Shown here in pieces: positions 1-29,655 of a stretch of 64,000 nt of DNA. Each line of letters opens with the position of its first letter. The stretch's first letter is position 1. The stretch is from a virus. Its lineage: Duplodnaviria > Caudoviricetes. Location of the stretch: positions 101,480-165,479 of IMG/VR virus record IMGVR_UViG_3300031760_000003, one strand, 5' to 3'. The notes under the pieces were generated by a model. That model saw only the letters and a list, made by a program, of their open reading frames with translations. It was not told where the DNA came from and searched no databases. A program made the position numbers and the translations under genes.

Positions 1-59
1 ACTCTGGTGCAGCCAACAACAACAACGCTTCCAATGCTAATGGGATAGCGCCCACGTGA
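1..59 (+). mobile_element. DGR template repeat (TR), 3' part; truncated by the window start
   Basis: tct ggt gca gcc aac aac aac aac gct tcc aat gct aat ggg ata gcg ccc reads SGAANNNNASNANGIAP. This AAC/AAT-rich run ending in GxxP, directly upstream of an RT, is typical of C-type-lectin DGR TRs. Confidence 0.85.
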
Positions 60-340
60 TTGTTATTATTAATTAAATATTTAAAATCTTAACTGAGCCT
101 TTTGAGTGAAAGGAGTAAGATATTTTTAATATAGATTTTATAAACTTTAATAAATAACAAGGAGTTTAAAATCCAGCTCTTAATAAAAATAAGACGAATC
201 TATATTTCTATTTTAAAGGGCGGACGCTTCTTGCATGGCATAATTTTATTAAGTTATTTATGTTTCATGTCCTTTAATAATATGACAGTGAATTAAACTT
301 AATATTTTATCTGCATAGAAATATTTTTAAAGAAGGTGTG
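60..340 (+). ncRNA. Structured DGR spacer RNA between TR and RT
   Basis: Inverted repeats ttgttatt(60-67)/aataacaa(153-160), atatttcta(202-210)/tagaaatat(316-324) and ttaaagggc/gtcctttaa. No ORF. Confidence 0.55.
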
Positions 341-344
341 ATTA

Positions 345-1517
345 ATGACTAGTTTAGAAAGAAAAGAATATAGATATCAAAGAAGAAAAGCTAAAAGGGA
401 GAAGAAAAAAGAAGAATTTTTAAAATCTTTACCTAATTATAATGAAATTTTTTCTTTTGAAAATTTATGGGATTCTTTTTGGCTATGTCGTAAAGAAGTA
501 AGTTGGAAACCTAGTTTACAAATATATCAACAAAATTTATCTTCTGAAATAGTTAAATTAAGAGAAATTTTATTTTCAGAAGAGGGATTTAAAACTGATG
601 GTTTTATTGAATTTAATATTTGTGAACGAGGTAAAATGAGACATATTAAATCAGTTAATATTAAAGAACGAGTAGTTCAAAAATGTTTTTGTGATTATTA
701 TTTAGTGCCTCTACTTACTCATAATTTAATTTATGATAATGGAGCTAGTTTAAAAAATAAAGGAATTGATTTTACTTTAAAAAGATTACAATTACATCTA
801 AAAAATTTTTATAAGAAATATAAAAATAATAAAGGATATATATTATTATATGATTTTTCTAACTTTTTTGGAAATATAAATCATAATATTTTATATAGAA
901 TGATAGACCCTTTAATACTTGATGATAGAAGTCGAAAGTTATTTCACCATTTAGTCGACGCATTTGGCGATGTTGGATTAGGATTAGGTAGCCAAATATC
1001 CCAAGTATCTGCAATAGCTTTTCCAAATAAAATAGACCATTATTTTGAAAATTGTCCTTATGTTGAAGATTATGCAAGATATATGGATGATGGATATATG
1101 ATTATTAAAGAAAAGAAAAATATTAATAATTGTTTAAAAATTTTATTTGAAAAAGCTAATGAATTAAAAATTATTATTAATTTTAAAAAGATTAAAATTT
1201 TAAAATTAAGCAAAGTATTTACTTTTCTTAAAAAGCATTTTTATTTGTCTAATTCAGGGCAACGTATTATTAAATTAAAAAGAAAAAGTATCTTTCAACA
1301 TAGAAAAAGAATTATTAAATTAATTCCTATGGTTAATAAAAAATTATTAAAATGGGAAGATTTAATTAATTCTCATAAATCTTGGTTAGGACAAATTAAA
1401 ATATATAAGAATTGGAAATCTATTAATAATATAGATTTACAGATAAGGAGGATATTAAAGGATGGATACAACAACACAGATATATCAAGCAATAAATGCT
1501 ATATCGCAACGAGTTAA
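345..1517 (+). CDS. DGR-type reverse transcriptase
   Basis: RT motifs KERVVQK, YDFSNFFGNI, GLGLGSQISQ (DGR-type SQ motif) and YARYMDD. Basic N-terminus. TR lies upstream. Confidence 0.92.
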   Translation: MTSLERKEYRYQRRKAKREKKKEEFLKSLPNYNEIFSFENLWDSFWLCRKEVSWKPSLQIYQQNLSSEIVKLREILFSEEGFKTDGFIEFNICERGKMRHIKSVNIKERVVQKCFCDYYLVPLLTHNLIYDNGASLKNKGIDFTLKRLQLHLKNFYKKYKNNKGYILLYDFSNFFGNINHNILYRMIDPLILDDRSRKLFHHLVDAFGDVGLGLGSQISQVSAIAFPNKIDHYFENCPYVEDYARYMDDGYMIIKEKKNINNCLKILFEKANELKIIINFKKIKILKLSKVFTFLKKHFYLSNSGQRIIKLKRKSIFQHRKRIIKLIPMVNKKLLKWEDLINSHKSWLGQIKIYKNWKSINNIDLQIRRILKDGYNNTDISSNKCYIATS

Positions 1518-1650
1518 TGAAGTTAATGCTAGATTAGATCAGGTAATGAGAGTTTTATCTGAAACTAATGCAGCTAATATAGATTATATTGCTATGATGA
1601 GTGATATTAATATACCTTCAGAGAAGGAGGATATTGAAAATGCACAGTAA
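1462..1650 (+). CDS. Small tail-fibre-associated coiled-coil protein
   Basis: RBS aggagg. ANIDYIAMMSDI motif typical of genes preceding xkdX-like ORFs. Overlaps the RT 3' end. Confidence 0.7.
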   Translation: MDTTTQIYQAINAISQRVNEVNARLDQVMRVLSETNAANIDYIAMMSDINIPSEKEDIENAQ

Positions 1651-1777
1651 AAATTTTGAAAAAGTAAAAAGTTATTACGATAAAGGTTTATGGAATGAAG
1701 AAATGGTTAGAAATGCTGTAGTTAAAGGATGGATAACTGAAGAAGAATACAGAGAAATCGTAGGAGAAGAATATTAA
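1640..1777 (+). CDS. XkdX-family small protein (45 aa; not in ORF track)
   Basis: MHSKNFEKVKSYYDKGLWNEEMVRNAVVKGWITEEEYREIVGEEY; RBS aggagg. Confidence 0.85.
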   Translation: MHSKNFEKVKSYYDKGLWNEEMVRNAVVKGWITEEEYREIVGEEY

Positions 1778-1969
1778 ACTTTTATTATTTTAAATTTTAA
1801 TCTAGTTAGGTAAGAAATATACTTGCCTACACAATTAACAAATATTGATTATTTCTATCAGATTTAAATAATAAAAGATTTGTATTAATGTATAACAATA
1901 TATAATAATCTTATTACAAAAATATTACAAATTTAATATTTTTATAATAAAATTTTAGACAATAGAAAT

Positions 1970-2001
1970 GGGCAAGTTTAGAAAAATATCTAAACTTGCC
2001 C
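1970..2001. terminator. Perfect 13-bp hairpin, probable terminator
   Basis: gggcaagtttaga-aaaata-tctaaacttgccc. Confidence 0.6.
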
Positions 2002-2070
2002 TATATACGAAACTTCCAGAAAGGAAGAGTATATCGTATTAAAAAAATATTTTTTATTTTTTACAATTTA

Positions 2071-2099
2071 ATCATACAAAAAATTTTATAAAAAGTCAA
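2071..2099 (-). promoter_or_regulatory. Leftward sigmaA-type promoter
   Basis: Minus strand reads TTGACT-17 nt-TATGAT. Confidence 0.55.
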
Positions 2100-2134
2100 A
2101 AATTTTAAAAGATTTTGATTCATCATCTTTTTCA

Positions 2135-2176
2135 TTGGACAAAAGAAACAAATAGTCATATTTTATTTTTTAAATA
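2135..2176 (+). promoter_or_regulatory. Putative phage-specific (late) promoter, class TTGGNC...+36 TAHATA
   Basis: ttggacaaaa at 2135 and taaata at 2171; the same spacing recurs at 8484, 19163, 28337 and 59358. Confidence 0.55.
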
Positions 2177-2214
2177 TATTATAATAGAAAAGAATAGAAG
2201 GAGGTTCTTTTGTA

Positions 2215-2877
2215 ATGGGAATAATTTATAAAAATGGTATCCCATATGGCGGAGGCGGTGATACTGAAGGTAGTGAAAGTTTCCTACTCGAAGACGTAGA
2301 ATTAAATTTTGTTAATAAAGTAGCTTCAATATCAGATAACAGAATCTCTGAAGAAACTTGTGTAACAGTTTATTATCAGGATGATAGTATAGAGGCGGCA
2401 AGAGCTGCTAATATAGAGGTAGAGACAACAGAAGGACATATTAATTTTTATGCTCAAACAAATCCTTACCAAACTATTATATGCAATATTCTTGCCGGAG
2501 CTTTTATTCAAAGTCCAGAGACATCTGCGGGAAACAGCGCTCTTCGTTCAGAAGGATTTGCCGTAGGAAAGCAAAATGGTGTTGAAGTAGATAGTGAATC
2601 TATTTACTATCACAACAATTCAAAATATTTTAAAGAACAAGCAGATTTATCTGCACAGAATGCAGAAAATAGTAAGAATGAGTCAGAGGCTTGGGCTGCT
2701 GGTACGATAAATGGTACAGATGTGCCGTCATCCGCAGACCAACATAATAATAATGCAAAATATTATTCAAAAGTGGCTCAAGGATGGGCGCAAACAGCTC
2801 TTGTAAATAAGGCATTAATTGCAGTAAACCCAGAAGATACATCAAATCTTAATATCTGGATTGAAGTTGATAATTAA
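2215..2877 (+). CDS. Tail fibre-associated structural protein
   Basis: Gly linker after a short N-terminal peptide; repeated SEAWA.G...Y.NNSKY motif seen in phage tail proteins; RBS aggagg. Confidence 0.6.
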   Translation: MGIIYKNGIPYGGGGDTEGSESFLLEDVELNFVNKVASISDNRISEETCVTVYYQDDSIEAARAANIEVETTEGHINFYAQTNPYQTIICNILAGAFIQSPETSAGNSALRSEGFAVGKQNGVEVDSESIYYHNNSKYFKEQADLSAQNAENSKNESEAWAAGTINGTDVPSSADQHNNNAKYYSKVAQGWAQTALVNKALIAVNPEDTSNLNIWIEVDN

Positions 2878-2892
2878 AAGGAGGTGTTATAA

Positions 2893-3729
2893 ATGTCTAC
2901 CTATTTAGTTATCAAAAATGGTACTGAAACTAAAAAATATAAGTGCGAATCAAGTGCTCCAAAACCTTATATACAAGTTTTAGATAAATGCTTACCTTTA
3001 ACGACTGTTACTAATACAGGTATGAATCTTAAAATAAAAGATAATAATAATAATATTTATATACCTACTGCTCAACAAACTATAACCACTAGTAGTGCTT
3101 ATATTAAATTAGATTTATTAAGTTATGACTCTGTCGCACTTACTTCTACTACCTATAATGGAACTTCAGCTAAAGGTGCATATACTTATTCATTTTCTGG
3201 CAGTACGGGAAATTCAGCTAATAGTATAAGTGCTTATGGAGAAAATTCTTATTTAAAAACTTTTACAAATATAAATAGCACATTATATGATGATTATGAG
3301 ATTTATTATACTAGCTACACAACTACAAATAATGGAACATTATCTAGTAGATCACATACTATATTTACAAGTGCTACTTCTTATTTATTTGCCTCAGTTG
3401 GCACTAGCTATACTAAAAATCATACACGCTATTCTTATAAGACTGGAACAATAAGTAATGCTATTTTAAAAAGAAGTGCTTATAAAACTCTTTCTAGTAA
3501 CCCGCTAAGAATTTATAGTACAGTAGAAGGATTATTATATACTACTAAAGGGAAAGGTTCTACAACTTCTTCGAGATCTACCACTTATTCTAGGACTTAT
3601 TGTACCAGCTGGTATATTATGACAGGTTGTTCAATTTGTCCGGCAACGTATAGCTATGCAACTTCTAGTGAGCAAAACTTTACTGCTGGATATTATGAAT
3701 CCTTAACTTATATGACTACATTAGAATAA
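2893..3729 (+). CDS. Ser/Thr/Tyr-rich putative tail fibre or virion protein
   Basis: Very high S/T/Y content; tail module context. Confidence 0.5.
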   Translation: MSTYLVIKNGTETKKYKCESSAPKPYIQVLDKCLPLTTVTNTGMNLKIKDNNNNIYIPTAQQTITTSSAYIKLDLLSYDSVALTSTTYNGTSAKGAYTYSFSGSTGNSANSISAYGENSYLKTFTNINSTLYDDYEIYYTSYTTTNNGTLSSRSHTIFTSATSYLFASVGTSYTKNHTRYSYKTGTISNAILKRSAYKTLSSNPLRIYSTVEGLLYTTKGKGSTTSSRSTTYSRTYCTSWYIMTGCSICPATYSYATSSEQNFTAGYYESLTYMTTLE

Positions 3730-3742
3730 AGGAAATAAACAA

Positions 3743-4984
3743 ATGGAGATAAAAGGAATTTCAGTTATATCTCCCATGTATGGAGATAGAAAAATAACAG
3801 ATAGAATGGTATTTTCAGTTATCCATCAATATATTAGTGAAGAAAATCCATTTAATATTCATCTTGTACTTGTAGATGATTACATTGAAGGGCGGCAAGG
3901 TGATGAAAGTTATTATAATTATTATTTATCGGATGAATTTAAAAAATTTTATAATACCGATAGAATTAAAATAGACATTATAAAAAACAAAGAGCATAAA
4001 TATCAAGGAGAAAGTAGGGAAATAGGTTTCCTTGCCGCAGATTATCCTTACTTTCTTCTTATTGATTGTGATGATATGCTTGCTCCCAATGCTTGCGATA
4101 GGTATTTGCATATCATAAATGAAGTTACAAGTGGAGAGAATCCTTCAAAACTTGCCTGTGTTTATGGTTTCGTTTATGGCTTTGACACAAAAGGGTATGA
4201 GCAAAAAATCATAGGCGAAAGTATTTGGGTACAAAGCAGATGTTTTAATAGAGATTTTATTAAAAAACATAGTATTCACTTCCCTACCGGTCTTAATTCA
4301 AAACAAGGAGAAGATTATCCTTTCATGCGGAAGTTCGATTACGCGCTTGCGCATGACAACGAATACTGTGCAGTAAAATTGCCGTATAATAATAATGAGG
4401 ATTGCCAATGTACAGCATATTGGTTTCCTAATGAGAAATCATTGTCAAGGATTGATCCCCATTATGGACAACATTTAAGCGGCTGGACTATGGCAAGTAG
4501 TAATGCGATTCTTGATTTCTTTGATGATTATAACAAAAAGCATGGATTCGAAGACCAAGAAGATGAATTTATGAAGCACGAATATCTCAATATGTGTATT
4601 TATGCTTTTTATAATTTACTCGACTTCTTAAAAGAGGTTTCAAGTACAGACTATAAACCTATTGAAGAAGATTGGTATGCCCTAAGAGATAATGTCAAAA
4701 AATTAAGACAAAGACTTAAAAATAAATATTGGAATGAGATAGTTTATTCCGATATTGAAGATATGCTTTACCAAGTTAAACATTTTTCTGATTGCAAATT
4801 TACAGAATGTTGGTTTGGTAATTTTTATGATTATATGAACACAAATTATTGTGAAACAATATTTAATTTTAATTATGAACAAATGATTAAATATTGTAAA
4901 ACATTAGAATTTGATGGTGCAGGTCATGAAGTTCATTCGCCTCAAGTAAAAGCTTGGGCGGAAAGGCACTCTGCCGCCATCTAA
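3743..4984 (+). CDS. Glycosyltransferase family 2 (GT-A fold)
   Basis: ISVISPMY, LVLVDD, SREIG, LLIDCDD (DxD) and GED motifs. Confidence 0.85.
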   Translation: MEIKGISVISPMYGDRKITDRMVFSVIHQYISEENPFNIHLVLVDDYIEGRQGDESYYNYYLSDEFKKFYNTDRIKIDIIKNKEHKYQGESREIGFLAADYPYFLLIDCDDMLAPNACDRYLHIINEVTSGENPSKLACVYGFVYGFDTKGYEQKIIGESIWVQSRCFNRDFIKKHSIHFPTGLNSKQGEDYPFMRKFDYALAHDNEYCAVKLPYNNNEDCQCTAYWFPNEKSLSRIDPHYGQHLSGWTMASSNAILDFFDDYNKKHGFEDQEDEFMKHEYLNMCIYAFYNLLDFLKEVSSTDYKPIEEDWYALRDNVKKLRQRLKNKYWNEIVYSDIEDMLYQVKHFSDCKFTECWFGNFYDYMNTNYCETIFNFNYEQMIKYCKTLEFDGAGHEVHSPQVKAWAERHSAAI

Positions 4985-5002
4985 AAGAAAGGAGCGGAAA
5001 AA

Positions 5003-7798
5003 GTGAGAGGTATAACTAATTTACATCCTTCAGATATTGAATGTAAATTATTTGAAGGAACTGAATCTACAGATTATACACCTTATCAAAAGAACTATAT
5101 CAATCCTGTTACGGAGATATATGGATGCTGTTCTAAAGAAAGTAACTATACGTTACCCGCAATAGATGATAATAGTTTAAAATGTGAAATTACAACTCAA
5201 AACATAGCAGAAGAACAGATCGCTTCATATGCGGGTTGTTGGCTTATTTCGGCAAGAAAAGATATGGACTTTACTGGTTCTGTAAGTAGTACCGCAAGTT
5301 CAACAACAACCATACAAAATAAATCTGCAACAATAACTCCAACATCTAGTTCAGGAACTTATTTAGATACAGATTTACCAAATTTAACTCATTTTAATAA
5401 GTATTATATTCTAATTGATTTATCAATAACTTCTGCAGGTTATGTATCATTTAGTGACTCGAAACCGGTTACTTTAAGTATTCAATATCCTAGCTCAGCA
5501 GAAGCAATACCTGTAGGAACATTTACAACATCTGCTTCTCTTGTTAAAAATCATCAAATAATTATTGAAGTTAATGATATTGAAACATATAAAAATTTAT
5601 TAAATAGTTTTACACTTAACTTCAGTTTTTATAGATCTACTTCAAGTTATAGTTATACTAGTTATATTCGCTATGAAATAAATCATTTAGAATTCTTTAG
5701 AACAGATAAAACTTCATTAGATTTAGAGGATGCTAATATTGTCATAGACTACGTTTTTGGCGGTGAAACAAAATTAACCTTTTATAGCTTATCACTTCCT
5801 AACTATGAATTAAATGGAATTAAGAACATATCAGAAAATGATGAATATAATTTATCAGATGGTATTAATAATTATCTCTGTGACGTATTAGATATCGATA
5901 AAAGCATTTTAATAAAATATATAGATCGTTTTACAAGAACTGTAACCAATGTTTTAACATACACTGTAAATATAGAAGATTCAGAGCCTAATTTAGATTT
6001 ATTAAGAACAAGAATCTATTTTGAAAATATGGATAGTATTCCATATAAAGTAGAAAGAGTATCTGAAAGTGAACTTATCATCACTTTTGAAGAGTCTTTC
6101 TCTGGAACTATAATTTTTACAGGCGCATTATTACAACCTTTAACTTTAGTTATTGATGCGGACGTAGCTGTTAGAAAAGTATCTGACTTCCTATCACCTG
6201 GTGCAACCTACAATATTAAATCTAATTTAGCATTAGAGTCAATAATTCCTAATACTATACAAGGTGATTTTAGTATAAGATCTTTTTACTCTGCCAGTAA
6301 GAACGTTAATGACATAAGAGGTGTTATTACTGGCGATTTTGCATTAGGAACAAAACAATCCTCTTATACAGATTTAGTAAATGAAACAAAAGAATTTGGT
6401 AAAAATTATGTTATTGTTAAAGATGCTCTCTATAATATATTACCAGAAAAAGGTAAAACAATTGAGAAATATAATGTAAATGATATTGTATCTTTAAATA
6501 ATTCTTTAGATGAATATATACAATTAAGAGGTATAGAAACATTTACAGATACTCTTTTAGAAAAATTATCAAAAATTAGCTTATATGGAAGTTTTGTAGT
6601 AAATAATGTAATGAATACAAGTTACTCACTTTCTTCAACAGATCATCATGATGGGGATATTATATTTAATGTAAACCCAGTGGTTAGATTAAAACTTTCA
6701 AAAGTATTAAACTCTTCTGACCTTTTGGTTTACTCAATAGTTAGTGAATTGTATGATAGTACCTGGAATACTGTAACTACACAAAAAATAGCTACAAACA
6801 CTGCTGCTATTGATTATTCACCAACAATAACTTATATGGGAGAAGGATTGTTTACCTATACAGTTGCAGGATATAATCATGATACTTATTATAGTACAGC
6901 AACAACTCTCAATACTTTAATAGTTAATCCAACAACTGCAGCTATTACTATTGGTACTGCTATTACAATAAAATCTGCTGATAATGCATCTGTTAATTAC
7001 ACTTATTGGACAGTACCGTCTATATATAATCCTTTCGCAGTGACCTATGTTTTTGAAAAAGATAACTACACTAATTGTGGTGATTATGGTTATCAACATA
7101 GTAGTACAGCATATACTTATCGTTCATTAATTTTTTATCCTTATTTAACTGCTATTTCCAATCTTCATTCTTCTGGAGATGGTAGTATCGGGACAACTTA
7201 TGAAACATACGTAAATAGTAGTGGAGACACTGTTTATAGTTATATAGGTAAAACATCTACTGACCTAGGGGCTTTTGGCTATATCGATTATGTATTTAAT
7301 AGTATTGAAAAAACTACAGGTGGATATAGACTTGTGGCTACAAATAGAGGTAATTCTATATTTCGATATGGTGCTATAACTTATTACGCACATACTTGGT
7401 CAAGTGGAACTATTGAAACTACATATGAAACAACTCGAAAAGGATATGTTATTACTAATTATTGTAATAACAAGAATGTCCCAGTTTCATTACAAATATA
7501 TGCAGGTTCTCAAGCTTCTGCAACGGCTGAGTGGATAACCACATTAGATATCCCATATACAGAATTATATGGAGATAACAAAAGATATGGTGTGCTATAT
7601 GCAGATGCAGGTCATATAGTTTTATTACCACGTAATACTACTACTAATTCTTATAATTTTAATGATATAACACAATTACTTACTTTAAAGGATGCTAAAA
7701 TTCTTCATTTTGATTTAACTGCTAAAAGATATCTTTTAGGTGTTTATACTGAGGATCAGTTGGCAGCAATAGGAAAGAAAATATTCCATTTAGAATAA
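5003..7798 (+). CDS. Large tail fibre / receptor-binding-like protein
   Basis: 931 aa, S/T-rich beta-type composition; followed by chaperone-like and XkdX-like genes. Confidence 0.55.
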   Translation: MRGITNLHPSDIECKLFEGTESTDYTPYQKNYINPVTEIYGCCSKESNYTLPAIDDNSLKCEITTQNIAEEQIASYAGCWLISARKDMDFTGSVSSTASSTTTIQNKSATITPTSSSGTYLDTDLPNLTHFNKYYILIDLSITSAGYVSFSDSKPVTLSIQYPSSAEAIPVGTFTTSASLVKNHQIIIEVNDIETYKNLLNSFTLNFSFYRSTSSYSYTSYIRYEINHLEFFRTDKTSLDLEDANIVIDYVFGGETKLTFYSLSLPNYELNGIKNISENDEYNLSDGINNYLCDVLDIDKSILIKYIDRFTRTVTNVLTYTVNIEDSEPNLDLLRTRIYFENMDSIPYKVERVSESELIITFEESFSGTIIFTGALLQPLTLVIDADVAVRKVSDFLSPGATYNIKSNLALESIIPNTIQGDFSIRSFYSASKNVNDIRGVITGDFALGTKQSSYTDLVNETKEFGKNYVIVKDALYNILPEKGKTIEKYNVNDIVSLNNSLDEYIQLRGIETFTDTLLEKLSKISLYGSFVVNNVMNTSYSLSSTDHHDGDIIFNVNPVVRLKLSKVLNSSDLLVYSIVSELYDSTWNTVTTQKIATNTAAIDYSPTITYMGEGLFTYTVAGYNHDTYYSTATTLNTLIVNPTTAAITIGTAITIKSADNASVNYTYWTVPSIYNPFAVTYVFEKDNYTNCGDYGYQHSSTAYTYRSLIFYPYLTAISNLHSSGDGSIGTTYETYVNSSGDTVYSYIGKTSTDLGAFGYIDYVFNSIEKTTGGYRLVATNRGNSIFRYGAITYYAHTWSSGTIETTYETTRKGYVITNYCNNKNVPVSLQIYAGSQASATAEWITTLDIPYTELYGDNKRYGVLYADAGHIVLLPRNTTTNSYNFNDITQLLTLKDAKILHFDLTAKRYLLGVYTEDQLAAIGKKIFHLE

Positions 7799-17323: not shown

Positions 17324-17352
17324 TTGACAAATTAAAAAAATTTTGTTATAAT
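17324..17352 (+). promoter_or_regulatory. Consensus sigmaA promoter driving the tRNA/ncRNA cluster
   Basis: TTGACA-17-TATAAT. Confidence 0.85.
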
Positions 17353-23995: not shown

Positions 23996-24889
23996 ATGCC
24001 AGATACCTATCAAGAAATTTACAAAATTACAGATACAGAATTGAAAAAAATAGAAGATGCAATTCGTTTTAAAAAAAACTATCCTTCTTCTTATCTAATA
24101 CCCACTGCATCTACAGATTATTTTATAAATACATTGGTTACAAATCAAGATATTGCTAGTTATATAAACACTTTTCCATATCCCGTTTTAAAACCACACT
24201 CTGTTTTTTATTATGGTGTTGACAGTTTACCTATTATGAATAATCCTTTTCATAATTATAATACTGTATTAGGAGATTCTTTAATAAGTGGTCAAATTCA
24301 TTTATTAAACTCTTATTTACAATGTTACAATCTGGAATATAATCATGCTTTTTATTTTGAAGCAAATGAAATTGGAACTCCTTTAATTAAAGGATATTTT
24401 TGGAATGGAAATACTTACCTTTATAATACCTCACCTAACCCAATAGTGGTTTATAATAATTGGCAGTATAACAATATTGTAGTAGAAGATAGGAGCTCTT
24501 TTATTTTAAATTATTTTACTCCTATCTCCAATTTAAATCTGCCGAATACTCAAACTATGGGAGTATATTTTGGAATTGTAAATACTAAAGGTCGTCGTAG
24601 AAATAGCCAATATACAAGAGATTATGGATACTTTTTTGAGCCTAATTATTTTTTAGAAAGATATTATGATACTATTCCTGCGGCAAGTAGGGTCAATAAT
24701 ACTACGTTATGGCAATATTTTTACAGCAAACAATTCACTGAACGAGCTGGACAATATATGTATGCTTTTAATGTAATGAATTACCGAAATAAATATAGTG
24801 ACTTAAATGCTGCTTTTGGTTATACTTGGGGATATTATTATGGACACTATGTAGTTAGTGGTTATAATGAGGGAAGAAGAGCCCCTTAA
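23996..24889 (+). CDS. Fibre-like protein with C-terminal endolysin-type YxDL...HY..G..EGR repeats
   Basis: TELKKIEDAIRFK N-terminal motif; FNVMNYRNKYSDLNAAFG...YYGHYVVSGYNEGRR. Confidence 0.6.
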   Translation: MPDTYQEIYKITDTELKKIEDAIRFKKNYPSSYLIPTASTDYFINTLVTNQDIASYINTFPYPVLKPHSVFYYGVDSLPIMNNPFHNYNTVLGDSLISGQIHLLNSYLQCYNLEYNHAFYFEANEIGTPLIKGYFWNGNTYLYNTSPNPIVVYNNWQYNNIVVEDRSSFILNYFTPISNLNLPNTQTMGVYFGIVNTKGRRRNSQYTRDYGYFFEPNYFLERYYDTIPAASRVNNTTLWQYFYSKQFTERAGQYMYAFNVMNYRNKYSDLNAAFGYTWGYYYGHYVVSGYNEGRRAP

Positions 24890-24897
24890 AAATAAAA

Positions 24898-25256
24898 TTG
24901 ACATTTTAAAAAATTTTTGTTATAATAAATATATAATAAAAAAGAAAATAATTTGCACCAAAAAAGGAAAACCTTGAAAATTATTTTCACTGTGAATATT
25001 ATTAACGGAATATTTACTTTACTCCGGTACTTAATAACAAAGCGGTCTTTAATCTTAAAAATATTTTTAACATTCATTTTACTCCACCGTTAATGGAGAA
25101 ATGGACACACCGCTATATTAAAATGAATGTTAAAAATAAAAATTTTTCTTGACAACTTAAAAAATTTTTGTTATAATAAATATATAAGATAACAAAATAA
25201 AAATTTTTTTAAAAGAAATAAAAATTCTTGACAAATTAAAAAATTTTTGTTATAAT
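24898..25256 (+). repeat. Three near-identical sigmaA promoter repeats
   Basis: TTGACA-17-TATAAT-aaatat at 24898, 25149 and 25228. Confidence 0.85.
24944..25138 (+). ncRNA. Putative structured small RNA with complementary (kissing) loops
   Basis: Hairpin loops attaacgg (25001-08) and ccgttaa(t) (25087-94) are exact complements; 19-bp closing stem 25062-80/25120-38. Confidence 0.65.
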
Positions 25257-25272
25257 AAATATGTAAGATAAA

Positions 25273-25884
25273 AAATATGAACTTTGACAATTTTTATGTT
25301 AAACCCATTGATAAACAGTAATTACTTATTACTGGTGGGGTATCTCGGAAATCGGAGATGATATTGAGAAGGATACTTTTCTATATTGTCTTTCTTAATA
25401 GGAGTAATTCTATTAAACAAGGCTAGGAACCAAGCGGTAAGAGATAGCATATACTATATCGCTTTATAGTGCAGGGTAAGTGTCGGCAGAGGAATAAAAA
25501 GTTAATCGAAAGATTAGCCTCTCTAGAACACTAATACAGGTGGTGCTGATTAGGACGTTCTAGAAAAACCAACAATCTGCTTCGGTGTGAACTGAAGAAA
25601 TTCAGGTATAAGACATTTATAGACGACTCTGAGTAGCTCAATGTGACGCCGTAGTCCATTCTAATTGGAAAATGTAAGTCAAATCAAGTAATGATTTAAT
25701 TTTTTGCTGAAAAAGCTGGGTGAAAGGTACGAGTAAACAATCTCGTTATGGCTTAGAAAGGGATAGAGAAGCAATTGGGTAGCTCCCATTTGCTCAGCCT
25801 CTGTTCTCCATATCGCATAATAATAAAGAAGGTATAGTATATAGTGCGAAGGCACTTCCATAAAAATTATCAAAGTTCATATTT
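25273..25884 (+). ncRNA. Large ornate ncRNA, ROOL-like (~610 nt)
   Basis: 25/26-bp terminal stem; many internal helices and a GAAA tetraloop; GC richer than flanks; no ORF with an RBS; starts just after consensus promoters. Confidence 0.65.
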
Positions 25885-25901
25885 AACACAAGAGGTAAGA
25901 T

Positions 25902-26045
25902 ATGTTTATATTAGATAAGATTAGGGAATTTCTTTTTAACAGAAAATGTCCTAGTCCAAAAATTCGTTGTTCGGTTTGCCCTTACTTTTATACTGATGAT
26001 AATAAAAATCGTAGATGCAAACTAATCGAAAAATATAAAATTTGA
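25902..26045 (+). CDS. Small Cys-rich protein (47 aa; not in ORF track)
   Basis: MFILDKIREFLFNRKCPSPKIRCSVCPYFYTDDNKNRRCKLIEKYKI; RBS gaggt. Confidence 0.55.
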   Translation: MFILDKIREFLFNRKCPSPKIRCSVCPYFYTDDNKNRRCKLIEKYKI

Positions 26046-26078
26046 TTTTTTCTATATTACTGCCTTTCTTTATATATA

Positions 26079-26116
26079 GCCCTTAATATCTTTTGATATT
26101 AAGGGCATTTTTTTTT
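26079..26116 (+). terminator. Rho-independent terminator fused to the next promoter
   Basis: gcccttaatatc-tttt-gatattaagggc plus a T tract running into TTGATT-17-TATAAT. Confidence 0.75.
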
Positions 26117-26181
26117 GATTTTTTATAAAAATAATGTTATAATTATAATATAAAATGATGAAAAAAAAGGAGTTAATATTT

Positions 26182-26481
26182 ATGCAAGACAGTCAGTTTT
26201 TTTGTACTCGATGCGGGAGGCTCGGGATACCTATTCAGAGAAGAAATGGTAGAAAAAGAGAGGCTGGACATTTAAAAAAATTATGGTGTTTAAATTGTAA
26301 AGATGAGGTTAATCACGTCGAGGTTAAAATGGGAACTCATTATAGTAAAGAAGATTTCGATTTAGAGTTTACCTATGGCAACTTCGATAAAGATGGTAAC
26401 AGGATATATCCCTATGGTATCTTTAAAACAAAAGTACACAATGGCGAAATAACATTAAAAGGAGATGATACTAATGAATAA
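26182..26481 (+). CDS. Zinc-ribbon protein (bL33-like pattern)
   Basis: CTRC...HLKKLWCLNCK..VNHVE; start moved to the ATG after aggag. Confidence 0.55.
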   Translation: MQDSQFFCTRCGRLGIPIQRRNGRKREAGHLKKLWCLNCKDEVNHVEVKMGTHYSKEDFDLEFTYGNFDKDGNRIYPYGIFKTKVHNGEITLKGDDTNE

Positions 26482-26977
26482 TAAAGAATTATATATTATG
26501 GTTGGATGTCCTGGTTCTGGTAAAGACTATTGGATAGAACATCATAAGCACGGTTTTGAAGGAAATGTTGGTATTATCAGTAGAGATAAAATCAGATACT
26601 CTAAGTTAAAAGAGGGAGAAGATTATTTCTCTCACGAGCCTGAAGTGTTTAGAGATTTTTGCTCTCAGATAAATGAAAGTTTAATAAAAAATGATGTAAC
26701 AATAGTAAATGCTACACACTTAAACAGACCTTCAAGATACAAACTTTTCAAAAATATAAAGTGTCCTGCGGGCACGAGAAGAATCGCTATGGTCATTAAC
26801 ACCCCGTTAAAGACCTGTCTTGAACAGAATGCCCGCCGCGAAGGACTTGCTAAAGTTCCCGAGGATCAGTTAAAGAATATGTTTGAAAATTTAACTATTC
26901 CTTCTCTTGAAGAGGGATTTGATACTGTATATATTTATTCAATAAACGGTGAAAGAGAAGTATATAAAATAATTTAA
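26474..26977 (+). CDS. AAA_33 / polynucleotide kinase-like P-loop kinase
   Basis: MVGCPGSGK Walker A, ISRDKIR, NATHL, CLEQNARR. Confidence 0.85.
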   Translation: MNNKELYIMVGCPGSGKDYWIEHHKHGFEGNVGIISRDKIRYSKLKEGEDYFSHEPEVFRDFCSQINESLIKNDVTIVNATHLNRPSRYKLFKNIKCPAGTRRIAMVINTPLKTCLEQNARREGLAKVPEDQLKNMFENLTIPSLEEGFDTVYIYSINGEREVYKII

Positions 26978-26991
26978 AGGAGTATAAAACT

Positions 26992-27747
26992 ATGCCAGTA
27001 CATGATGAGTTAGGAAAAAGAATGAAAGGATATGAAGCAGTACCTAAAACCGTATTAATGAAACGGACACCCGTTGCGATTAGAATCGACGGAAAAGCCT
27101 TTCATACCTTCACTAGAGGATTTAAAAAGCCTTTCGATAATATATTAGTAAAGTCAATGCAGGAGACAATGATATACCTTTGTGAGAATATACAGGGGTG
27201 TGTTTTTGGATACTGTCAGTCAGATGAAATCACTTTAATCTTAACTGACTATAAAACTTTTGATACCGCCGCATGGTTTGATTATGAAGTTCAGAAACTT
27301 TGTTCAATATCTGCGTCAATGGCAACTATGACTTTCAACAAGTTCTTTGCTAAGAATGTATATACAACTCCGTATATATCAGATTATTATGAGATATATA
27401 CCAAAGCAATAGAAAAAGGAGCCATGTTTGATTCAAGATGCTTCAACATTTCAAAAGAAGAGGTATGCAATCTTGTATACTGGCGGCAGCTTGACGCCAC
27501 CAGAAACGCTATACAGATGGTAGGACAGGCTTATTTCTCTCATAAACAGCTTCAGAATAAATCCTGTGCAATAATACAGGAAATGCTTTTCCAGGAAAAG
27601 GGTATCAATTTCAATAATTATCCCGTATATTTAAAGAGAGGAACTGCTTGTTATAATACTGAAAATGGTTGGTTATTAGACCTTAATATGCCAATTCTTA
27701 AAGGTGAAGATAGAAATTATGTAGATAAATTGATTAATTTTGAGTAA
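26992..27747 (+). CDS. thg1: tRNA(His) guanylyltransferase Thg1-like protein
   Basis: RIDGKAFHTFT, QSDEITL, FDSRCF and WRQLDATRN motifs. Confidence 0.92.
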   Translation: MPVHDELGKRMKGYEAVPKTVLMKRTPVAIRIDGKAFHTFTRGFKKPFDNILVKSMQETMIYLCENIQGCVFGYCQSDEITLILTDYKTFDTAAWFDYEVQKLCSISASMATMTFNKFFAKNVYTTPYISDYYEIYTKAIEKGAMFDSRCFNISKEEVCNLVYWRQLDATRNAIQMVGQAYFSHKQLQNKSCAIIQEMLFQEKGINFNNYPVYLKRGTACYNTENGWLLDLNMPILKGEDRNYVDKLINFE

Positions 27748-27767
27748 AAGGAGGAATTATAACAAAA

Positions 27768-28313
27768 ATGAGTAATATTTGGGTAAGTTCAGATTGTCAT
27801 TTTTGTCACGATAAAGAGTTTATTTTTAAACCTCGCGGTTTTGATAACGTCTATGACATGAATGAAACTATTATTAAAAATTGGAATAGTCTTGTAAACT
27901 ATGATGATACAGTTTATCTCCTTGGAGATGTTATGCTTAACGATAATTTTGAAGGTATAAACTATCTCCGTAGACTTAATGGTAACATCAAAATCATCCT
28001 CGGTAACCACGATACCGACACCCGCAAAGATTTATATAAAGAACTTTATAACGTGGAAGTTTTAGGATACGCAACACTTATTAAAGCAAATGGTTATATT
28101 TTTTATCTTAGTCATTATCCTACTTTAACAAGTAACCACGACACGGATAAGCCGCTAAAAAGACAGGTTATTAACCTATGTGGTCATTCGCACATCAGCG
28201 ATCCTTTTGCTGACTTTGATAAAGGATTAATTTACCATTGTGAGTTAGATGCTCACGGTAATTCTCCTGTATCAATAGAGCAGATTATTACCGATATCAA
28301 TAAGAGGGTATGA
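27768..28313 (+). CDS. Calcineurin-like metallophosphoesterase
   Basis: SDCHFCH, LGD, GNHD, SHYP, GHSH. Confidence 0.9.
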   Translation: MSNIWVSSDCHFCHDKEFIFKPRGFDNVYDMNETIIKNWNSLVNYDDTVYLLGDVMLNDNFEGINYLRRLNGNIKIILGNHDTDTRKDLYKELYNVEVLGYATLIKANGYIFYLSHYPTLTSNHDTDKPLKRQVINLCGHSHISDPFADFDKGLIYHCELDAHGNSPVSIEQIITDINKRV

Positions 28314-28431
28314 TTATTCATACCTTCTTTTATTATTTGGGCAAAAGAAGATAAAAATTAATAAAGATTTTTTATATACAATATGTAAGATTTATCTTAT
28401 AAATAAAAATCAAGAAAGCGAGTGTGTTTTA

Positions 28432-29655
28432 ATGGCATATTTCTATGATACTTGTGCATTACTTAATAAACAGGAAGCTCTCTTTGATGGAGAAGTATTC
28501 TATTTATCAATCATCTCGTTACAAGAGTTAGAGAATATCAAAACCTCTTTCTCCAAAGACGAAGAAACTAAATGGAAGGCGAGGAAGTTATTAAGATTAC
28601 TTGATAGTAACGAAGGAAAATACCAAGTAGTCTTATACGATAATAGTTGGGATGATGAAATCTTAAAAGATAAACTCCAGGTTATTAACGATACCAGAAT
28701 TATTTATACCGCATATAAGACACATCCTGAAGCTATTTTTGTTACTAATGACTTATCATGTAAATTTTTATCTAAAAAATACAATTTAAAAACTGAATTT
28801 TATAAAGATAAAGAAGATAACTACACTGGCTATAAAGTGATTAACTTTACAGAGAATGAGTTAGCTACTTTTTACAATACTACTTTTGCGAATAATAATA
28901 ATGTTTACAAATTATTAAATAATCAGTATTTAATAATTAAACTAAATAATAAAGTAGTAGATAAATATAAATGGCTTGATAATAAATATATTGCAGTCCC
29001 TAACAATAGAATAGACTCTAAATTCTTCGGAAAAATAACTCCACAAGATGAATACCAGCAATTAGCTATTGATAGTTTAATATTTAATAAGATTACTGTA
29101 CTGCGCGGCAAGGCGGGCTCCGGTAAGTCTTATATCGGTCTTGGTTATCTGGTAACTGAACTCGAAAGAGGTCATATCGACAAGATAATAATTTTCTGTA
29201 ACACTGTAGCTACTAGAGATAGTTGTAAACTTGGTTTTTACCCTGGCAGTAAAGATGAGAAGCTACTCGATTCGCAAATCGGTAATTTCCTTATTAGTAA
29301 ATTAGGTGACATTACTATGGTTGAAAAATTCATTAGTGATGGTCGTTTAGTACTAGTACCGGTATCAGACTGCCGCGGAATGGATACAACAGGAATGAAT
29401 GCTGGTATATATGTAACAGAAGCACAAAATACTACAATAGATATGATGAAACTTATTGTACAACGTATTGGTGAAGATAGTATTTGTGTAATTGAAGGTG
29501 ATGATAAAGCTCAAGTTGATATGATTACATACGGCGGTAATAACAATGGTCTTAGAAGATTATCAGAAGTCTTCAGAGGTCAAAATTATTACGGTGAAGT
29601 TACTTTACAAAAATGTCATCGATCTGCTATTGCAGAACACGCTGATTTAATGTAG
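28432..29655 (+). CDS. phoH: PIN domain-PhoH ATPase fusion
   Basis: N-terminal YDTCALL...ELENIK...NDTRII...TND (PIN); GKAGSGKS, LGFYPG, EAQN, GDDKAQVD (PhoH). Confidence 0.88.
   Translation: MAYFYDTCALLNKQEALFDGEVFYLSIISLQELENIKTSFSKDEETKWKARKLLRLLDSNEGKYQVVLYDNSWDDEILKDKLQVINDTRIIYTAYKTHPEAIFVTNDLSCKFLSKKYNLKTEFYKDKEDNYTGYKVINFTENELATFYNTTFANNNNVYKLLNNQYLIIKLNNKVVDKYKWLDNKYIAVPNNRIDSKFFGKITPQDEYQQLAIDSLIFNKITVLRGKAGSGKSYIGLGYLVTELERGHIDKIIIFCNTVATRDSCKLGFYPGSKDEKLLDSQIGNFLISKLGDITMVEKFISDGRLVLVPVSDCRGMDTTGMNAGIYVTEAQNTTIDMMKLIVQRIGEDSICVIEGDDKAQVDMITYGGNNNGLRRLSEVFRGQNYYGEVTLQKCHRSAIAEHADLM

Follow-up and report, generated by a model that had tools for sequence, protein, structure and literature searches.

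The DNA analyzed here, called the window, is a stretch of 64,000 nucleotides corresponding to bases 101480-165479 of a 165,479-bp IMG/VR record rated 100% complete. It belongs to the genome of an uncultured phage with a GC content of 33% and 18 tRNA genes distributed in five clusters; the proteins encoded next to the locus match phage families, and the host is probably a low-GC anaerobe. As presented in Table 1, we observed on the plus strand a structured companion RNA, a tandem pair of promoters, a large RNA closed by a long terminal helix, a small ORF, an intrinsic terminator and a cluster of genes related to RNA metabolism. The GC content was 0.34-0.39 over the large RNA, compared to about 0.25-0.30 in the surrounding DNA.

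Table 1. Features of the ROOL locus and parts of the RNA (window positions).
Feature	Position	Strand	Remarks
Promoter A, TTGACA-17-TATAAT	24898..24926	+	12/12; faces the companion RNA
Companion RNA, about 195 nt	24944-25138	+	separate, structured; behind promoter A
Promoter B, distal of the tandem pair	25149..25177	+	12/12; inside direct repeat
Promoter C, ROOL-proximal	25228..25256	+	12/12; TG-extended -10
ROOL RNA with extended P1	25273..25884	+	Rfam match proper 25280-25875
P1, 5' arm	25273..25298	+	pairs with 25859-25884; 26 bp, one mismatch; consensus P1 16 bp
Helix CAGUAAU/AUUACUG	25317-25336	+	matches ROOL consensus helix
P3 three-hairpin domain	25341..25446	+	P3a 14/15, P3b 9/11, P3c 2/5 pairs
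P3a	25356-25391	+	conserved GGAUAC loop
P3b	25393-25418	+	9/11 consensus pairs
Apical hairpin GUUAAUC-GAAA-GAUUAGC	25501..25518	+	7 bp, GNRA loop, no bulge
P8/P9 hairpin and joining strand	25522..25571	+	loop GUGGUG 25540-25545; ACCA 25568-25571
Helix UCUAGAAC/GUUCUAGA	25523-25565	+	matches ROOL consensus helix
Variable linker	25642..25715	+	enclosed by P12 (25630-25641 / 25716-25726)
Hairpin CGAG-UAAACAAU-CUCG	25730..25745	+	family-conserved GUAAnCAAU loop
Long 3' arm	25748..25811	+	apex GGG-UAGCU-CCC 25777-25787; AGCU self-complementary
Hairpin GUGC-GAAG-GCAC	25844..25855	+	last before P1 closes; 4/4 pairs
47-codon ORF	25902..26045	+	Shine-Dalgarno AAGAGG 25889-25894; 17 nt past P1
First intrinsic terminator after ROOL	26079..26106	+	12-bp stem, then T9 run
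RNA-metabolism cluster	26155..29655	+	own promoter-like site at 26115

The original prediction had proposed that the large RNA is ROOL-like. We compared the whole window with all 4227 Rfam families using cmscan and observed a match to RF03087 (ROOL) at 25280-25875 on the plus strand, with 261.6 bits (E 1.3e-58) against a gathering score of 99.1 bits. The alignment spans model positions 1-574 of 574 and is not truncated; the family guess was correct. The RNA measures 596 nt by the Rfam model and 612 nt counting the extended closing helix, and this size, the phage genome and the strong promoter fit ROOL as had been proposed. The motifs ggaacca, ctgaaga and agtagctcaa, which the prediction had named, were likewise all found in the sequence. 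Among 27 full-length ROOLs scored (range 207-351 bits), the window copy, the only one in its genome, lies at the low end.

Regarding the fold, a repeat scan recovered a terminal inverted repeat of 26 nt with 25/26 complementary positions (96%), and the terminal helix claimed beforehand is thus real, with one mismatch. The internal helices described with it are also all present, and each falls on a helix of the Rfam ROOL consensus. For 25263-25890 we obtained a minimum free energy of -187.4 kcal/mol, compared to -134.7 +/- 6.2 kcal/mol in dinucleotide shuffles (z = -8.46), and the single-sequence fold recovered most of the ROOL consensus helices. When the Rfam structure was projected onto the window, 151 of the 159 consensus pairs were retained. 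The cmscan alignment is shifted by one base in P1, the CGAG/CUCG hairpin and the 3' arm, and for this reason we recounted the pairs allowing a one-base slip; 138 of the retained pairs (91%) were then canonical, compared to 122 in the cmscan register. Of the eight deleted pairs, P3c accounts for three, the outer end of P5 for two and the hairpin at model positions 448-460 for three.

We also aligned the window copy with 27 other ROOLs with exact Rfam boundaries using MAFFT, which gave an alignment of 28 sequences independent of Rfam. RNAalifold predicted 89 pairs, 85 of them with changes on both sides, and these pairs include the helices first noticed in the sequence; the window sequence fits them. 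The CGAG/CUCG hairpin (columns 551-554/564-567) and the GUGC-GAAG-GCAC hairpin (columns 727-738) both covary. P1 is absent from this prediction, the ends being poorly aligned among the 28 ROOLs. The loops and junctions GGAUAC, AGUAGC, GUAUAA, GUGAAAG, GUAAnCAAU and GAAG are all present in the window copy, aligned to the consensus, and correspond to invariant or near-invariant columns of the 28-sequence alignment.

A blastn comparison with named phages returned a 46-nt core only, in Enterococcus phages. One of them, the cultured phage EFDG1 (NC_029009.1, our locus L217), carries at 4530-5116 a full-length ROOL of 260.6 bits that is unannotated in RefSeq. Its score nearly equals that of the window copy, and both carriers are large phages, the EFDG1 type measuring about 150 kb; unlike the window copy, the EFDG1 ROOL fills the gap between tRNA-Ser and tRNA-Met within a tRNA array. 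The same short blastn match occurs in 20 other Enterococcus phage records, where it is unannotated in 19 and called 'hypothetical protein' in one. Taken together, the model match, the retained helices, the covariation among 28 sequences and the near-equal score of EFDG1 make the family membership secure: judged from its sequence, 25273-25884 is a genuine, full-length ROOL copy. The family, its cage structure and its association with phages are already known, and the window copy is a moderately divergent new ROOL.

Several parts of the RNA differ from the ROOL consensus. The closing helix has 26 bp compared to about 16, the small side hairpin of the 3' arm (model 448-460) is deleted, and P3c, which has lost three pairs, is cut down to 2 bp inside the motif CAAGGCUAGGNACCAAG. 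In its exact form this motif is common to the window and one relative only (L205), with close variants in two others (L201 and L215), and a search of viral contigs with it returned no further ROOL. The apical hairpin at 25501-25518 is the equivalent of P7 in the Kretsch numbering and the most variable hairpin of the 28-sequence alignment. In the window it is free of bulges; in the env-120 structure, by contrast, a bulged base at this place takes part in one bridge. The linker enclosed by P12 aligned with low posterior probability and a 16-nt insertion in cmscan, and could not be aligned across the 28 ROOLs; the corresponding linker in the solved cages is disordered and faces the interior (PMC12286853). 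Sequence elements that may form two of the cage contacts are present. One is the self-complementary AGCU loop at the apex of the 3' arm. The other is a contact of kissing-loop type, UGGU in the P8/P9 loop being complementary to the ACCA downstream; in other ROOLs this loop/junction complementarity covaries, as UAGCUU/AAGCUA, UAGCA/UGCUA and GGC/GCC. Following the text of PMC12286853, UGGU/ACCA would correspond to an inter-subunit bridge; contacts were mapped onto the published bridges from text descriptions (PMC12286853, PMC12990946).

The nearest ROOLs were found on uncultured phage contigs, at the loci L205/L213 (IMGVR_UViG_3300032038_000044), L215 and L201/L214. A three-way alignment of the window copy with L200 and L201 gave a mean column identity of 68%. 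The group formed by L205, L215 and L201 resembles the window in its promoter, TTGAC-17-TGTTATAAT at an equal distance from P1, and in a similar CAAGGCUAGGNACCAAG-type motif replacing P3c; the AGCU apex loop is found in L205 and L201 as well. By contrast, the ROOLs of these relatives lie 65-80 nt after a tRNA in arrays of 23-25 tRNAs, with one promoter and not two, and with neither the companion RNA nor the neighbouring genes of the window. We searched for closer relatives with the clade motif and with loop/junction patterns, and also scanned metagenomes with a pattern combining promoter and P1; all patterns together returned only the L205/L215 type and two distant ROOLs.

The original prediction also placed two tandem consensus promoters immediately upstream of the RNA. 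This pair was found, although the total is three perfect sigma-70 promoters, not two; those at 24898, 25149 and 25228 all score 12/12 with a TG-extended -10. Promoters B and C are in tandem because of a direct duplication of 78-79 nt (25119-25196 vs 25198-25275, 82% identical). The three belong to a class of 29-nt promoters, TTGACA-N3-TAAAAAATTTTTGTTATAAT, in which the A/T-rich spacer is conserved; the 165-kb genome has 23 copies, 20 of which are on the plus strand. Five copies are exact: the three that stand before the companion RNA and ROOL, and two in a block of tRNAs and structured RNAs (window 18468 and 18682). All five exact copies precede non-coding RNA genes. In the window, the sites of this class are at 17324, 18468, 18682, 19835, 24898, 25149, 25228, 31835, 39060 and 42328, and the remaining 13 are upstream of it. 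The nearest relatives L205, L215 and L201 carry a single promoter copy, the unit of the window being a tandem duplication.

The same promoter with the same spacing was observed in L205, L214 and L052, where the -10 ends 23-29 nt before model position 1. Since the promoter lies at an equal distance from P1 in the nearest relatives, we infer that the 5' end of ROOL is the end of the primary transcript, with a start near 25263, about 10 nt ahead of the closing helix. Judging from the promoters, the host RNA polymerase would transcribe the locus very actively, starting at about 25263 and about 25184, and the RNA product, with the 26-bp helix closing it, would measure about 620 nt. A terminator scan returned none between ROOL and the 47-codon ORF. 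Because the first terminator ends only at 26106, the primary transcript would probably have a 3' tail of about 220 nt that includes the ORF, unless it is trimmed; ROOL and the ORF thus probably share one primary transcript.

The ORF encodes an orphan peptide with four Cys, which had no Pfam or PHROG match and whose sole database match was itself. Further downstream, the cluster encodes, in this order, a Zn-ribbon protein, a P-loop kinase (AAA_33), a Thg1-like protein, a metallophosphoesterase and a PIN+PhoH protein. The Thg1-like protein is nearest to proteins of Fusobacterium and Bacillus phages, with less than 50% identity. This gene set suggests a putative function in the repair of cleaved tRNA or RNA ends, by analogy with T4 Pnkp/Rnl and with Thg1-like proteins, which are 3'-5' nucleotidyltransferases. 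The PhoH gene itself (28432-29655, plus strand) is a PIN+PhoH fusion (PIN_4, E 9.5e-8; PhoH, E 3e-27), a domain pair that characterises RNA helicase/RNase proteins of the PhoH2 type, unlike the plain PhoH common in phages.

We then considered these neighbours in other genomes. Among 50 phage records with Thg1-like homologues (68% identity or less), eight carry a ROOL and none has it adjacent, the distance from ROOL to the Thg1 gene always being at least 14 kb in these eight; a conserved adjacency of ROOL and RNA repair was rejected. One further locus (L025) has a similar operon of Zn, kinase, esterase and PhoH genes, with a ROOL motif on the opposite strand about 6.5 kb away; this is insufficient for linkage. 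A link between ROOL and PhoH was also rejected as a rule: PhoH lies about 1.5 kb downstream in one close group only (L020, L014, L081), and EFDG1 carries an unrelated AAA ATPase at the corresponding place. None of the proteins neighbouring the window copy was found at the four nearest ROOL loci. An nhmmer search with 24930-25145 returned no companion RNA elsewhere in 206 loci, nor in the extended regions around the four nearest ROOLs. A pairing of the linker with the companion RNA or with the tRNA block was discarded, 98/200 and 91/200 shuffles respectively being equally good, and for the duplex energy of the whole companion RNA with the whole ROOL 9/100 shuffles were equally good.

The nearness to tRNAs that is common in the family fits only loosely here. 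The closest tRNA is 6,690 nt upstream of ROOL, past a glycosyltransferase and two fibre-like genes, and this is the largest distance in the set, compared to a median of about 155 nt (range 14-4249) at the 26 other loci. Same-strand tRNAs are present upstream, downstream or on both sides at 25 of these 26 loci. Compared to the family, the window copy thus lies outside a tRNA array, has its own duplicated promoter and is followed by a small ORF instead of a tRNA. What is unusual is this context, namely the detachment from tRNAs, the duplicated perfect promoter, the companion RNA, the 3' tail with its ORF and the adjoining RNA-repair genes; we regard it as a lead and not as a finding, because none of it is conserved in the relatives reached. 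Tethering to tRNAs does not seem obligatory for ROOL, and the window copy offers a natural detached case.

According to cryo-EM studies, ROOLs from a rumen metagenome, Enterococcus faecalis and Ligilactobacillus salivarius fold into flat monomers that assemble, at nanomolar concentration and free of protein, into hollow cages of 8 or 6 copies held by kissing loops, A-minor contacts and symmetric loop-loop pairing (PMC12286853, PMC12990946). The solved structures are an octamer for env-120 (9MDS), an octamer for E. faecalis (9J3T) and a hexamer for L. salivarius (9J6Y) (PMC12990946). The window copy resembles these ROOLs in the order of its helices, its long-range pairings, its conserved loops and junctions, the place of its linker, its length and its phage carrier. 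By homology, its RNA would fold into a flat multi-junction monomer and assemble without protein into a hollow dihedral cage of 6 or 8 copies. Kissing loops and A-minor contacts would keep this cage together, and the variable linker of about 75 nt would face inward. We consider it very probable that the stretch is an expressed, functional ROOL gene, and its RNA probably forms such a multimeric cage, with somewhat less certainty. A review ascribes the difference between hexamer and octamer to the length of the apical stem (PMC12990946); the bulge-free GAAA hairpin, the lost side hairpin and the reduced P3c might alter the subunit number. With its altered apical hairpin and the loss of the side hairpin, the window copy is a useful natural variant for asking what sets this number.

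The authors of the cage structures speculate that the particles enclose tRNAs, ribosomes or other molecules (PMC12286853, PMC12990946). A role in tRNA maintenance or translation is proposed here on account of the near-universal placement of the family in tRNA arrays and of the adjoining RNA-repair genes of the window. An abundant RNA particle might sequester or distract a host factor acting on tRNA or ribosomes. The suggestion that the phage uses the cage in a programme that maintains its tRNAs and translation is speculative and drawn from genomic association, and we give it a rather low probability. A larger proposal, which we hold to be improbable, joins the companion RNA, the ROOL cage, the Cys-rich peptide and the kinase, Thg1-like, phosphoesterase and PIN-PhoH proteins in one RNA module that would restore or protect the tRNA pool. 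Such a module might counter host defences that cleave tRNA, the cage acting as a decoy or as a holding compartment. If this were true, these genes would be the first functional partners of ROOL.

A different explanation is that the RNA works mainly in cis and not as a free-standing particle; as a giant 5' leader it would control or stabilise the 47-codon ORF, perhaps with read-through into the RNA-repair operon. The good Shine-Dalgarno site of the ORF is in line with this, as is the terminator-free course from the end of P1 (25884) through the ORF up to the terminator at 26079-26106. However, no other ROOL locus has a homologue of this orphan ORF, the 26 other loci are flanked by tRNAs and not by a conserved ORF, and the ROOL family self-assembles in vitro (PMC12286853). 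A commentary on Ling et al. (PMC12515178) reports that the cage tolerates RNA appended 3' of ROOL, displaying it on the outside, and that such RNA does not block assembly, so co-transcription with the ORF is no argument against a particle. Overall, a cis-acting leader appears very unlikely, and the self-assembling ROOL remains the preferred reading. It is also favoured over the still less probable view that the copy is a decaying, non-functional remnant, drifting since its displacement from the tRNA arrays. The distance of 6.7 kb to the nearest tRNA, the greatest in the set, the loss of one consensus hairpin with the reduction of P3c, and a score at the low end of the range for 27 ROOLs would agree with decay. 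Against it stand the 91% of retained pairs that are canonical, the intact 26-bp P1, the z-score of -8.46, the intact conserved loops and the duplicated perfect promoter in front. The ROOL of EFDG1, moreover, scores alike, and P3c is similarly altered in L205, L215 and L201, which suggests a feature of the clade and not decay.

Shared size and ornate structure would also suit another class of large RNA (GOLLD, OLE, a group I/II intron or a ribozyme), and a protein-coding region was considered as well. The cmscan run proposed as a check matched ROOL but not the GOLLD, OLE and group I/II intron models: none of these, and no ribozyme model, reached the gathering threshold in the window, and a permissive scan of 24850-26200 at E <= 1 likewise returned no match to any of them. 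Regarding coding potential, no plus-strand ORF of at least 40 aa lies in 25273-25884; the three ORFs found there, of 42-64 aa, are on the minus strand, and all genes of the surrounding block are on the plus strand. Another RNA class or a coding region has a negligible probability in our estimate and is refuted within the limits of sequence models. GOLLD does resemble ROOL as a large ornate phage RNA usually found near tRNAs, which forms an RNA-only cage with a variable linker in the interior (PMC12286853). In contrast with the window ROOL, it has an unrelated sequence and fold, is typically at least 800 nt long and forms 10- to 14-mers.

The ROOL cage has been solved by three groups, and what the window copy contributes to the family itself is little. 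For expression and pull-down work, however, its locus is a compact and self-contained construct.

Other RNA elements were noticed during the analysis. In one close phage group, ROOL is preceded at a distance of about 2-5 kb by 'drum' RNAs (RF02958, 55-57 bits) that lie beside a tRNA, at L016 4600-4727, L109 3966-4093, L028 393-520, L014 7122-7249, L074 3885-4012 and L048 4168-4295; like ROOL, 'drum' is an orphan RNA family accompanying tRNA arrays. A jumbo phage of 402 kb (G046, IMGVR_UViG_3300032167_000002) carries two full-length ROOLs about 200 kb apart, at 6246-6837 (312.6 bits) and 209967-210580 (327.8 bits). Finally, at the start of the window (213-277, plus strand), we observed a partial match to the Rfam RT-2 RNA, which covers model positions 95-157 of 222 and scores 46.9 bits (cut-off 40). 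Directly downstream of it, a plus-strand ORF of 390 aa (345-1517) matches RVT_1 (E 1.1e-10). Together they may represent a phage retroelement, for example a diversity-generating one, with fibre genes nearby.
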